Notes under the pieces: model-generated
Seen by the model: the letters and a program-made list of their open reading frames with translations, nothing else
The model's database searches: none
What the model was told of the DNA's origin: nothing
Shown here: piece after piece, positions 49,724 through 54,444 of the stretch
Position numbering within the stretch: the first letter of the stretch is position 1
Layout of the letters: the number at the start of each line of letters is the position of its first letter
Origin: Escherichia phage vB_ESM-pEJ01
Length of the DNA stretch: 64,000 bases
Sequence record: OP114734.1
Strand: one strand, 5' to 3'
Program-made: the position numbers and the translations under genes

Positions 49724-49926
49724 TTACATTTAGGGCAATGCGGTTCTTTAATATAATACCCGTCTGTCTTTGGAACACTAACAGGAGCGGTTTTTATATT
49801 GTATTCGGTGAAACAACGAAAACAAGTTACGTTTTCTACAGACTGACGTTTCACCCAATAACCGGAATAGAGGTCATTTTTATTTGTCATATTCCACCAC
49901 CACAATGTTAATGTCTGGAGTAGCAA
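49696..49926 (-). CDS. zinc-ribbon small protein (76 aa)
   Basis: CFRCF...CPKCKC. Confidence 0.45.
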   Translation of the reverse strand: MLLQTLTLWWWNMTNKNDLYSGYWVKRQSVENVTCFRCFTEYNIKTAPVSVPKTDGYYIKEPHCPKCKCRLYWSHL

Positions 49927-50335
49927 TATTAATGATTTCTTCTACACATTCCAACTCAAGGCCACCGATACCGCAACCGATTTTAGGGATATAGAAAGGC
50001 TGTATAGCACCTTCAAAAACATCATTGAGAGTCTCAAATCCTTTCAGGATAGCACCATATTCAGCATTTGGACCCGGTCGGAATTGGGTATAGAGATTCA
50101 CCCCGCACCAGTTATAACCATTAACTTGATGCGTCCAGACACTAAACCCACCCAACTTTTCTACCTTACCGCGAGAAGTTTGCTTGTCAATCTCTAACGC
50201 TTGCGGGAACTCTTTCGCGATATCCGCAGCAATACCAGCGCCCATAGTATGAAAACAATTACAACCATGAATTAAATGACCGTTTCCTTGTTTAAACAGG
50301 GCGATGAGATCGCCCTTTACAGTATCAATAATCAT
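49880..50335 (-). CDS. Macro domain protein (ADP-ribose binding / ADP-ribosyl hydrolase-like)
   Basis: IHGCNCFHTMGAGIAADIAKEF and IPKIGCGIGGLELECV match the two conserved glycine-rich macrodomain motifs; 151 aa. Confidence 0.6.
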   Translation of the reverse strand: MIIDTVKGDLIALFKQGNGHLIHGCNCFHTMGAGIAADIAKEFPQALEIDKQTSRGKVEKLGGFSVWTHQVNGYNWCGVNLYTQFRPGPNAEYGAILKGFETLNDVFEGAIQPFYIPKIGCGIGGLELECVEEIINIATPDINIVVVEYDK

Positions 50336-51820: not shown

Positions 51821-52156
51821 TTATCCTTTCTTAAACAAATTGCGAAGCCAGTATACAAACGGGATTTCTTTAAACTTGAATTTCTCTATAGTTAATTCTT
51901 TAGTAGCAAGATGAATACCATAAGCATCATGTGTCACGATATGCCATTTTCTATAGTCCAAATGTGAACAACCGTCTGGATCTAGGTTAATAAGAGTTTC
52001 TCGCTCACTAGGATTATTTTTCCACAATTTTGTAATAGGATCGCACATAATTCGACCTAGCGTACCATGAATAATCTCACAACGGTAAAGTTTTCCAGCA
52101 GTGAGATAGGCGCACCCGTCATAGTCGGTATAAACAAACACTTCTTTAACACTCAT
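51821..52156 (-). CDS. small paralog family protein (member 1 of 3)
   Basis: DPDGCSHLDYRKWHIV motif shared with next two ORFs; start at ATG 52156 (AAGGAG SD, promoter upstream). Confidence 0.5.
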   Translation of the reverse strand: MSVKEVFVYTDYDGCAYLTAGKLYRCEIIHGTLGRIMCDPITKLWKNNPSERETLINLDPDGCSHLDYRKWHIVTHDAYGIHLATKELTIEKFKFKEIPFVYWLRNLFKKG

Positions 52157-52184
52157 TTTAATACTCCTTTGTTTCGATGGGGGT

Positions 52185-52213
52185 ATATTACTACCCCCGT
52201 TTTGTTGTGTCAA
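52185..52213 (-). promoter_or_regulatory. sigma70-type early promoter (-35 TTGACA rc 52208-52213; -10 TAATAT; IR gggggta/taccccc)
   Basis: 17-nt spacer; IR 52180-52199. Confidence 0.45.
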
Positions 52214-52474
52214 CTACTTTTTCAAGATTTTTTTAATTGCGTTCCAAAGACCTTTATTCTCAGGTTGTTTTGGTTCTTCGATTAGTGTCCATGTTCGACC
52301 GTCTAAGTGTGCACAATTTTTAAGACAAATAAAAATCTGGTGTCCCTTATCATCACGGATATAACCACTATTCGCAAATCTTTCATGTGGTGTATATTCA
52401 TACAGTGTATTTGGTGTAATATACTTGCGGTTACTATAAGGTGTCATCACATACATCATGGTACTAACTCCCAT
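52214..52474 (-). CDS. small paralog family protein (member 2 of 3)
   Basis: YEYTPHERFANSGYIRDDKGHQIFICLKNCAHLDGRTWTL; start uncertain. Confidence 0.45.
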   Translation of the reverse strand: MGVSTMMYVMTPYSNRKYITPNTLYEYTPHERFANSGYIRDDKGHQIFICLKNCAHLDGRTWTLIEEPKQPENKGLWNAIKKILKK

Positions 52475-52650
52475 TTATCACCGCGAAGATGAGAACATCC
52501 ACCATCAAGAAGTATCGTAATACGATAACCTATATCATCTTTGATGTAACCGATTGTCGGTGGATTTTCGTCGTCTCGTGTCGGGGTAAAATCATACATC
52601 TTTCCGGGCGTAATATCTTGTCCTTTATTGCTATTGGTATAAACTTTCAT
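52456..52650 (-). CDS. small paralog family protein (member 3 of 3)
   Basis: YDFTPTRDDENPPTIGYIKDDIGYRITILLDGGCSHLRGDKWEL. Confidence 0.45.
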   Translation of the reverse strand: MKVYTNSNKGQDITPGKMYDFTPTRDDENPPTIGYIKDDIGYRITILLDGGCSHLRGDKWELVP

Positions 52651-52671: not shown

Positions 52672-53370
52672 CTAACCACGGGTATAGTGTTCCAGAACAA
52701 CTGTCAGATGAATATATTCTAATAGATCTTTCCAAAAGTCAACATCTGGTTCTTCCGGCATACCGTTTTTCTTTGCCTCTTCACGCGCGAGTTTAACACG
52801 TTCGTAGAGATCTTTCAATTCTTCCCGCACATTATCAAAGGTTCTTTCTCCTAACTTACACGCTAAAATAGAAGAACGTCGCGCGAGCGGGAATTGTAGA
52901 TCACCTGTCTGATAGATTTCAAGTAGCTGATAACCAACACGCAGAGCATGAGAAAGATCTTTCCAGTTACTGAAATACTTTTCAGATTTGGCTACCTGTT
53001 TCTTGAGATAACCAGACAAACCCCACATCCCAACATGATAGAATTTATCGCGATGTGTTCGGATGTATTCCCATTCTCTGGAGGATTCAATCAACATGTT
53101 ACTAGGCGCGTGCACCATGTCAATAGCGCCGATATCACCTTTACATGCCAGATTGATAAACCGTTTTAGACTAAACATATTAACGTCAATATCGTCTTTG
53201 GTGTTCTTGATACCTTGACCGCTAGTGCTTTGGTCATAGTGTTCTTTCATCGATCCTAAGATAATTTCTTTCGCAGTCGGAACAAAGATACCACGATAAT
53301 CTTTATCTGAATTTTCAGTATCAAGGCCGTATAAGTGAGATCCGAAGACCATTTTAACCATTGTATGCAT
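52672..53370 (-). CDS. minimal nucleotidyltransferase (Pol-beta superfamily fold)
   Basis: hG[GS]-x(n)-DhD signature FGSHLYGLDTENSDKDY near N-terminus; 232 aa with helical C-terminal half. Confidence 0.5.
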   Translation of the reverse strand: MHTMVKMVFGSHLYGLDTENSDKDYRGIFVPTAKEIILGSMKEHYDQSTSGQGIKNTKDDIDVNMFSLKRFINLACKGDIGAIDMVHAPSNMLIESSREWEYIRTHRDKFYHVGMWGLSGYLKKQVAKSEKYFSNWKDLSHALRVGYQLLEIYQTGDLQFPLARRSSILACKLGERTFDNVREELKDLYERVKLAREEAKKNGMPEEPDVDFWKDLLEYIHLTVVLEHYTRG

Positions 53371-53388
53371 AATTAAACCCTCAGTTGA

Positions 53389-53982
53389 TTAAACGTATTC
53401 AGCAACAACATTATGTTTAAAATTACCGCTCCTTTTTGGATTTGGATTTTTCAATCGACTATGTATTAAATTTTTGTTGTATCCGGTTGCTTTAGACGCT
53501 TCGCCAATACTTTGATAAACAACACCATTAACACGAATCGGACGAGACTTATTAAACAGTTTATTCAATCCGGCATCATATGCATGGTTTTGGTTTTCTT
53601 GCCTCGTTGCGATCTCAAGATTCCAAACACAATTACAAGATTTTACCCCACTTTTATGATTAATTTCAAGACCTTCACAATCACCTATAAAGTGTTCAGC
53701 AACTAGTCTATGAATATAGCGATATTTCTTACTTTCCCCATCATGCAAGCATACATTATAATAACCATCACCAGCGCGTTTAGGTCGGAGTAGTTTACCT
53801 TTAACACGTTTTATAGTAGGGAACTCACCAAATTGATTTCTCTGGATAAACGGAATCTCGCGGTCTAATGAACGGATTCGACCATAGTTAGACACTTGAT
53901 AAAAACTTTCATATCCTTTAATTGGCTTCCATATCTCAGGGATTTCTACACCATCAATAACAACAAGTTTAAATTCTTCCAT
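53389..53982 (-). CDS. HNH homing endonuclease (NUMOD4-like N-terminus plus HNH)
   Basis: IKGYESFYQVSNYGRIRS (NUMOD4-like); YIHRLVAEHFIG...INHKSGVKSCNCVWNLEIATRQENQNH (HNH). Confidence 0.75.
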   Translation of the reverse strand: MEEFKLVVIDGVEIPEIWKPIKGYESFYQVSNYGRIRSLDREIPFIQRNQFGEFPTIKRVKGKLLRPKRAGDGYYNVCLHDGESKKYRYIHRLVAEHFIGDCEGLEINHKSGVKSCNCVWNLEIATRQENQNHAYDAGLNKLFNKSRPIRVNGVVYQSIGEASKATGYNKNLIHSRLKNPNPKRSGNFKHNVVAEYV

Positions 53983-54001: not shown

Positions 54002-54025
54002 AAGCCAACCCTTTCGGATTGGCTT
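54002..54025 (-). terminator. rho-independent terminator 3' of GrcA-like gene
   Basis: rc hairpin aagccaatccgaaagggttggctt followed by UAUUUUUAU. Confidence 0.45.
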
Positions 54026-54030
54026 GTTGA

Positions 54031-54444
54031 TTACATAGATTCCGTAAAGGTACGGGTGATAATATCAAGTTGTTGTTCGCGTGTCAAGGCGTTGAAGCGG
54101 GTAGCATAACCACTGATTCGAATTGTAAGCTGCGGGTACTTCTCAGGATGTTCAACCGCATCAAGAAGAGTCTCCCGACGCAGTACATTCGCGTTGAGAT
54201 GATGACCCGCGTTACTATTTACCCCGTTATCAATTGCTAAAGGACGGAAGCTAGTTGTGTGCAGTTCCAGCGAATCGACGTCTTCTGCGGTGATCACATG
54301 ATCTTCTGCGAAAGTTTTACTAACAATTACTTTAGCGCCGATCAGTGCTTTCGGTTCGGATACCAGAATCATAGGCGCGAAATGTCCACCGATAATAGTA
54401 CCTTTATGCTCACCTTTCATGATTTGAATTGCTTTAAATTCCAT
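54031..54444 (-). CDS. GrcA/YfiD-like autonomous glycyl radical cofactor protein
   Basis: C-terminal [58 protein letters not shown] closely matches remembered E. coli GrcA incl. glycyl-radical RxSGY motif. Confidence 0.7.

Follow-up and report, generated by a model that had tools for sequence, protein, structure and literature searches.

Which enzyme does the phage gene nrdC.11 encode, and on what substrate does it act? The question is raised by a 64,000-nucleotide stretch of Escherichia phage vB_ESM-pEJ01 (sequence record OP114734.1; the whole stretch is called the window below), in which an open reading frame (ORF) on the minus strand specifies a protein of 232 amino acids (aa). A sequence-only reading had described the product as a stand-alone minimal nucleotidyltransferase (NTase) with the signature of the Pol-beta superfamily. 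Its coordinates, protein length and quoted motif were all reproduced exactly by a check of ORF and sequence: translation starts at the ATG at 53370 and stops at 52672-52674, the product begins with MHTMVKMVFGSHLYGLDTENSDKDY, and residues 9-25 are the signature peptide FGSHLYGLDTENSDKDY. The protein almost certainly belongs to the RlaP family (PF10127), whose characterised members are the enzymes of Pseudomonas fluorescens (PfRlaP) and P. aeruginosa (PaRlaP). It would add nucleoside monophosphates (NMPs) to RNA 3' ends, filling gaps in cleaved tRNAs before the phage enzymes Pnkp and Rnl1 complete the repair; taken as a whole, this statement is tentative and falls somewhat short of an even chance.

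52672..53370, minus strand: nrdC.11 coding sequence, 232 aa plus stop, for an RlaP-family (PF10127) NTase (ORF listing, Pfam, identity to RB49, annotation of Phi1)
53035..53370, minus strand: predicted N-terminal Pol-beta-type NTase domain, residues ~1-112, a mixed beta-sheet with flanking helices (AlphaFold2, fold matches, hhalign)
52675..53025, minus strand: predicted C-terminal helical domain, residues ~116-232, five helices; K137 and R144 are invariant within the phage and Bacillus members
53338..53343, minus strand: hG[GS] motif, codons G10-S11, invariant in all alignments including those with PfRlaP and PaRlaP; equivalent to G39-S40 of PfRlaP
53299..53307, minus strand: DxD metal-binding motif, codons D22-K23-D24, invariant; equivalent to D51-Y-D53 of PfRlaP
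53185..53187, minus strand: third catalytic carboxylate, codon D62 at the start of strand 62-67, a conserved acidic position; equivalent to D84 in the hDh motif of PfRlaP

The gene is known and already annotated, and so is its enzyme family, since the Phi1 reference annotation carries the name nrdC.11 and the product 'nucleotidyltransferase' (in the order vs.6, nrdC.11, three small ORFs, regB) and a COG3541 nucleotidyltransferase match of nrdC.11 orthologues was recorded already in 2006 (PMC1524935). What is new here is modest, namely the assignment of D62 as the third carboxylate and the view of Krischvirus NrdC.11 as an apparently secondarily trimmed form whose layout is nearest that of the crystallised bacterial enzyme. 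About 3.2 kb around nrdC.11 are 95-99% identical to 58 Krischvirus phage records (RB49, Phi1, MIZ4 and others), and the protein is 100% identical to that of RB49. The window and Phi1 genes differ at six nucleotides, all six differences being synonymous, and nrdC.11 is therefore maintained by purifying selection.

Pfam places residues 7-191 on positions 24-198 of the 249-position PF10127 profile with 53.6 bits, above the gathering cutoff of 23 (E 3.4e-14); P0002, a close short relative, spans profile positions 23-229. PHROGs assigns the protein to phrog_388, 'nucleotidyltransferase' (E 2e-79). Both matches lie far beyond chance, so that the Pol-beta-superfamily signature read from the sequence is confirmed; an NCBIfam search assigned no family. 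Relatives are widespread. An exhaustive HMMER scan returned 3,575 clusters (50% identity) at E<=1e-3, and tblastn found matches in 1,619 phage records, which comprise T4-like phages of many hosts as well as Mycobacterium, Gordonia and Bacillus phages; in 1,561 phage records the match spans at least 80% of the window protein. Close similarity together with the nrdC.11 annotation identifies the protein as a T-even NrdC.11 orthologue: it is 41-48% identical to T4-type NrdC.11 and its Straboviridae orthologues, with all catalytic and many other residues invariant. One metagenome homologue of 94 aa (P0182) nearly equals the window protein in its first ~70 residues (97% identity over 71) and then diverges, which suggests a frameshifted allele or an assembly error.

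The product is neither minimal nor unusually short, as had been supposed. Its NTase domain is fused to a helical domain of its own, and 232 aa is a normal length among RlaPs (249 positions in the Pfam model, ~250 aa in Bacillaceae members, 262 aa in PfRlaP), the short forms matching the PF10127 model as one unbroken stretch. What the sequence-only reading had excluded stays excluded. It had seen no HEPN partner, and no HEPN gene occurs among the neighbours examined. MNT proteins are single domains of ~100-140 aa beside a separate HEPN gene, whereas the window protein carries its helical domain in the same 232-aa chain and has no recognisable partner; for that domain, generic four-helix bundles score equal to HEPN domains. 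Canonical CD-NTases and CCA-adding enzymes had likewise been set aside, and Pfam gives no match to either. CCA-adding enzymes and class II poly(A) polymerases were not matched in NCBIfam either, their length differs (~400 aa versus 232), and Foldseek returned only weak, low-probability matches to terminal uridylyltransferases and Cid1. No CD-NTase or cGAS-like enzyme appears among the top fold matches, and PADLOC detected no CD-NTase or defence NTase, its sole match being noise (E 0.032, to a CARF/HEPN model).

Conservation of the active site extends well beyond the phages. Across 37 phage homologues, G10, S11, D22, D24, D60, D62 and D84 are invariant. PfRlaP and PaRlaP, whose sequences were taken from the supplement of a preprint (bioRxiv 10.64898/2025.12.29.696909), share ~15-18% pairwise identity with the window protein; in the alignment, G10, S11, S21, D22, D24 and Y121 are nevertheless invariant from the window protein through both enzymes, and the signature residues G10, S11, D22 and D24 are thus kept up to the Pseudomonas proteins. 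A comparison of the profile of the phage clade with PfRlaP by hhalign (probability 92.5%, E 4.8e-7) places the three catalytic motifs of RlaPs, [GS], DhD and hDh, in register, with I61-D62-V63 aligned to L83-D84-V85. The third catalytic carboxylate, which the sequence-only reading had left to be found, is by this comparison D62, because the position is acidic in every homologue (D or E once the alignment is widened to outgroups of 22-24% identity) and pairs with D84 in the hDh motif of PfRlaP. The catalytic triad is intact. D84 of the window protein was also considered as the third carboxylate and rejected, as it is replaced by T or E in distant homologues and is unconserved outside the T4-like clade. 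In a metagenome homologue (P0143), N replaces the second of the metal-binding aspartates (SDTNY where the motif reads SDxDY), and this protein may for that reason be catalytically impaired.

The AlphaFold2 model, built from 37 sequences (predicted local distance difference test, pLDDT, 91.4; predicted template-modelling score, pTM, 0.87), predicts with high confidence a two-domain fold in which a beta-sheet NTase domain (~1-112) is followed by five helices (116-230). Foldseek searches of the Protein Data Bank (PDB) with this model returned KNTase/ANT(4'), Hailong HalB, LinB, 3c18, Tam41 and AAD(9) at E 2.5e-5 to 2e-3, with template-modelling (TM) scores of just 0.28-0.47; the closest solved fold is that of HalB. 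The fold prediction is thus that of an NTase, as the sequence-only reading required, while PDB sequence searches with the single protein and with the 37-sequence profile gave nothing meaningful. The crystal structure of PfRlaP consists of an NTase and a helical domain with a cleft between them, and its final helix packs against the NTase domain (bioRxiv 10.64898/2025.12.29.696909). The predicted division into two domains and the predicted long terminal helix (210-230) of the window protein are in keeping with that description. The Pseudomonas enzymes and the window protein share PF10127, motifs in register, the NTase-plus-helical plan and the absence of a T4-type insertion (262-266 versus 232 aa). 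They differ in a ~28-residue N-terminal helix that is missing from the phage protein, in genomic setting (between rtcB and rtcA in an RNA-repair operon, whereas the phage gene adjoins no repair gene) and in their place in the family network at E 1e-30, where the phage clade falls in cluster 5 and the Pseudomonas enzymes in cluster 1a (network of bioRxiv 10.64898/2025.12.29.696909). The MAFFT alignment of the phage proteins with those of Pseudomonas is unconvincing over the helical domains, and the equivalence of K137/R144 with K161/R168 is by inspection only.

The absence of the insertion sets the window protein apart from most of its phage relatives.

52966..52989, minus strand: junction at residues ~128-135, where T4-type NrdC.11 has an extra folded module of ~100 aa; the window protein is without it

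T4-type NrdC.11 proteins have ~305-345 aa and carry an alpha/beta module of ~100 aa, inserted after the first helix of the helical domain and before the second, whereas the Krischvirus protein lacks this central module. The insert at the junction measures 12 residues in the window protein and 11-20 aa in five short forms, as against 88-130 aa in ~150 long forms, and the module is present in ~150 of the 155 closest relatives. In the long-form model it is a confidently folded domain (residues ~131-240 in P0037, for example), for which no PDB match could be identified. The module was lost cleanly, at least three times, at one common junction (…KYG.KG /.DWK..SHALR…). In a neighbour-joining tree rooted on three distant phage homologues without the insertion (200 bootstraps), the window protein lies, together with P0002 (57% identical and its sole close short relative), among the long forms in 199 of 200 bootstraps, and in none are the two basal; two further short lineages are placed elsewhere in the tree. 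Because of this nested position, the module would most simply have been lost secondarily in the Krischvirus lineage, and independent losses number at least three in all. The window protein is thus a trimmed variant inside the NrdC.11 orthologue group and still a member of it. Decay of the gene to a deletion remnant was also considered, and is ruled out by the six synonymous differences out of six, the intact catalytic residues and the confident model.

What the protein does has to be approached through the two Pseudomonas enzymes. The name RlaP (PF10127) goes back to Burroughs and Aravind and refers to some members that lie in operons with RNA ligases (as cited in bioRxiv 10.64898/2025.12.29.696909). 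The biochemistry of PfRlaP and PaRlaP was described by Carruthers, Fatma and Huang in a preprint of December 2025 that has not been peer reviewed; in both P. fluorescens and P. aeruginosa the gene is flanked by rtcB and rtcA (bioRxiv 10.64898/2025.12.29.696909). Both enzymes add one or two NMPs or deoxynucleoside monophosphates to an RNA 3'-OH with a preference for Mn2+, act preferentially on the 5' half when given a mimic of cleaved tRNA and accept neither DNA nor protein; in addition, they weakly NMPylate themselves and accept dATP (bioRxiv 10.64898/2025.12.29.696909). RlaP-extended tRNA halves were sealed with T4 Rnl1, and the authors propose that RlaP is an antidote to ribotoxins that not only cut but also remove nucleotides, such as RloC; T4 NrdC.11 lies within their family network, all of which is one cluster at E 1e-10 (bioRxiv 10.64898/2025.12.29.696909).

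Because the RNA 3'-end chemistry has been shown only for the two Pseudomonas RlaPs, we infer it for NrdC.11; by this analogy, template-independent nucleotidyl transfer to RNA 3' ends is its probable activity. D22, D24 and D62 would hold two divalent metal ions, probably Mn2+, and a nucleoside triphosphate (NTP) in the cleft between the NTase and helical domains, and one or two NMPs would be transferred to an RNA 3'-OH without a template. During infection, NrdC.11 would replace nucleotides trimmed from host tRNAs by nucleotide-excising (RloC-like) host anticodon nucleases, acting after PseT (the polynucleotide kinase-phosphatase, Pnkp) has produced a 3'-OH and before RnlA (RNA ligase 1, Rnl1) seals the break. 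The heal-and-seal tRNA repair of T4 would thereby be extended to lesions that it could not otherwise reverse. This cooperation with Pnkp and Rnl1 against nucleotide-excising nucleases we likewise infer, and such a role in tRNA gap-filling is possible rather than probable. Several observations are in keeping with it. Pnkp yields a 3'-OH of the kind that RlaP needs, and the close relative Phi1 encodes both pseT (Pnkp) and rnlA (Rnl1). Wobble-nucleotide removal by RloC could, according to the paper on this nuclease, defy reversal by phage Pnk/Rnl1 (PMC2610378). No tRNA genes occur in the window or in the annotation of those parts of Phi1 that were inspected, so the phage would rely on host tRNAs. 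The unrelated mycobacteriophage AvadaKedavra encodes, besides its RlaP homologue (gp32), a polynucleotide kinase, an RNA ligase and a Ro-like protein; at genome level, co-occurrence with Pnkp and an RNA ligase holds for two of the three lineages checked, too few for statistics.

A number of points weigh against tRNA gap-filling by NrdC.11. Identity to the characterised enzymes is only the ~15-18% given above, and acceptor specificity varies widely among Pol-beta NTases. No RNA-repair gene adjoins nrdC.11: pseT and rnlA lie ~75 kb away in Phi1, and the neighbours are an HNH endonuclease gene, vs.6, three small ORFs and regB, with no RNA ligase among them. Nor is an RNA ligase or Pnkp gene adjacent to the homologue in any of six other relatives (two mycobacteriophages, a Bacillus phage and three Bacillaceae loci, one of them prophage-like), and mycobacteriophage Azrael100, which has an RlaP homologue, carries no annotated Pnkp or RNA ligase at all. 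Linkage to an RNA ligase is not required for membership in the family, however, since the preprint ascribes it only to 'some' members. The nucleotide-metabolism neighbours found in several phage lineages (NrdH, ribonucleotide reductase, ThyA and thymidine kinase) are unexplained by the repair model. The preprint from which the RlaP chemistry is taken is without peer review, labels T4 NrdC.11 as of 'unknown function', and concedes that random nucleotide addition restores just a minority of tRNAs (bioRxiv 10.64898/2025.12.29.696909). Finally, T4 survives laboratory loss of nrdC.11-mobD.3 (PMC9825161); such dispensability is compatible with a host-specific counter-defence role and gives that role no positive support.

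The same chemistry could also serve other RNAs. NrdC.11 might tail the 3' ends of mRNAs or RNA fragments, of the host or from RegB-cleaved early transcripts, for decay or an altered fate, in the manner of poly(A) or poly(U) polymerases. RlaPs do label numerous E. coli RNAs, bands of rRNA size among them, and can use any of the four NTPs, but a tail that ends at one or two nucleotides is poorly suited to decay, and the cleaved-tRNA mimic is their preferred substrate (bioRxiv 10.64898/2025.12.29.696909). The location of nrdC.11 ~0.8 kb from regB, the gene for an early-mRNA endoribonuclease, with three small ORFs between, fits this use; the proximity is not conserved, however, T4 nrdC.11 adjoining mobD and distant phage homologues having other neighbours, and mRNA tailing appears quite unlikely. 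A similarly low probability attaches to action at the acceptor end of tRNAs, either to repair a 3'-CCA nibbled by host nucleases or to block host tRNAs with extra nucleotides in a MenT-like manner. tRNA genes are present in two of the three inspected non-T4 phages (nine in AvadaKedavra, more than 20 in Azrael100, the phage without annotated Pnkp and ligase). Full-length tRNAs in total E. coli RNA were labelled by RlaP, yet an annealed tRNA mimic was extended preferentially at the break in the anticodon loop and not at the acceptor 3' end (bioRxiv 10.64898/2025.12.29.696909). Moreover, an enzyme lacking nucleotide specificity is ill-suited to rebuild CCA, and the family and fold searches gave no similarity to CCA-adding enzymes or MenT.

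Other alternatives depart from RNA repair altogether. A protein or a small molecule might be the acceptor, as for KNTase/LinB/AadA, DrrA or GlnE, perhaps a component of host or phage nucleotide metabolism. The fold likenesses that could point this way are weak (TM 0.37-0.47) and without sequence support; KNTase ANT(4'), LinB and AadA/AAD(9), which modify small-molecule antibiotics, reach TM scores of just 0.28-0.41 at ~11-13% identity and no sequence-level match. In the family's only biochemistry, proteins and DNA were not substrates (bioRxiv 10.64898/2025.12.29.696909), and the co-location of homologues with nucleotide-metabolism genes may be incidental because phage early regions are generally rich in such genes. 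A non-RNA acceptor is accordingly judged unlikely. The closest solved fold raises a different prospect, in which NrdC.11, primed on its own tyrosine like HalB (PDB 9dbh/9dbj), would make short oligonucleotides without a template as decoys or signals, e.g., to keep the Hailong system of the host off. Forging such oligonucleotide 'all-clear' signals, which would keep the HalA channel closed, would be a new kind of counter-defence and not RNA repair. One tyrosine, Y121, is invariant across the family. The weak self-NMPylation and the use of dATP by RlaPs would also suit this idea, but the characterised enzymes extend RNA and halt after two nucleotides (bioRxiv 10.64898/2025.12.29.696909). HalB itself synthesises long poly-dA and works with the HalA channel, whereas no HalA-like partner gene lies near nrdC.11; the window protein is only 12-13% identical to it, with no relationship at the level of sequence or profile, and does not qualify as a HalB. 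There is, besides, no evidence that these phages meet Hailong, and the idea is very improbable. Least credible is the making or destroying of nucleotide second messengers (CD-NTase-like, or as interference with CBASS, Pycsar or Thoeris), which the sequence-only reading had offered next to nucleotidylation of a protein or tRNA. It has the shared Pol-beta catalytic motif in its favour and nothing else; PADLOC, the fold matches and the Pfam assignment to a different family all speak against it. Of those suggestions, an NTase with RNA or tRNA as the likely acceptor stands, and second-messenger activity is left without support.

Were tRNA gap-filling by NrdC.11 correct, its consequences would reach beyond this phage. 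Pnkp and Rnl1 of T4 have for nearly forty years stood as the textbook example of how phages counter the anticodon nucleases of their hosts. Damage by RloC-type nucleases, which remove a nucleotide as well, was proposed in 2008 to be beyond repair by these two enzymes (PMC2610378). Should the missing nucleotide come from NrdC.11, the repair pathway of T-even phages would comprise three enzymes, and another explanation would be needed for the greater abundance of RloC. Krischvirus NrdC.11 is a convenient object on which to test this, being the smallest natural version in the T4-like clade and the nearest in layout to the crystallised bacterial enzyme; comparison with the T4 long form would reveal what the extra module contributes.

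The surroundings of the gene resemble those in T4 in one respect, as nrdC.11 adjoins a free-standing HNH homing endonuclease gene in both genomes. They differ in that the T4 gene lies next to mobD, whereas in the window genome it is located between vs.6 and regB.

53378..53382, minus strand: Shine-Dalgarno sequence GAGGG, 7 nucleotides 5' of the nrdC.11 ATG, read from the sequence
53389..53982, minus strand: free-standing HNH homing endonuclease (NUMOD4 + HNH_3, by Pfam), directly upstream of nrdC.11
54002..54025, minus strand: terminator-like hairpin with a 10-bp stem and a T run, after vs.6 and upstream of the HNH gene and nrdC.11, found by a scan; also in Phi1

The final 24 nucleotides preceding the nrdC.11 ATG are the same in Phi1. 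The HNH gene is an insertion, with the terminator hairpin of vs.6 on one side and the ribosome-binding site of nrdC.11 on the other; genomes of the Phi1/RB49 type lack it, whereas MIZ4-type genomes have it, as does, at the same site, the contig that encodes P0002. Since T4 likewise has an HNH gene (mobD) adjoining nrdC.11, homing may repeatedly have targeted either nrdC.11 or vs.6. The vs.6 gene (54031-54444, minus strand) encodes a GrcA-like protein that is a stand-alone glycyl-radical domain (Gly_radical in Pfam, 58.7 bits), and its terminator-like hairpin is a strong one. A sigma-70 promoter-like site close to consensus (11/12, extended -10 TG) is located shortly upstream of the hairpin, at 54087-54059 within the end of vs.6.

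While nrdC.11 follows this glycyl-radical protein gene in the window, it closes the nrdC.1-.11 cluster in T4. In four unrelated contexts (AvadaKedavra, Azrael100, Bacillus phage BMBsp2 and a prophage-like block of Bacillus safensis), the RlaP homologue lies within a few kb of genes for NrdH glutaredoxin, class Ia ribonucleotide reductase, thymidylate synthase or thymidine kinase, and not beside RNA-repair genes. These neighbours may reflect the organisation of early-region genes or a different role of the RlaP homologues.

On the 3' side of nrdC.11, three small ORFs follow on the minus strand (52456-52650, 52214-52474 and 51821-52213), the counterparts of Phi1 ORF097, ORF096 and ORF095. They are mutual paralogues at 34-42% identity with a common Y..T...I.L..C.HL....W pattern, and none has a Pfam match; by their sequences they appear to be a tandemly triplicated small protein. 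Farther on, Tk.4 (49880-50335, minus strand), annotated as 'phosphatase' in Phi1, has a macro domain by Pfam (Macro, 25.6 bits; cutoff 22) and is a candidate for binding or removing ADP-ribose; the ADP-ribosyltransferases Alt and ModB are encoded by the same phage.

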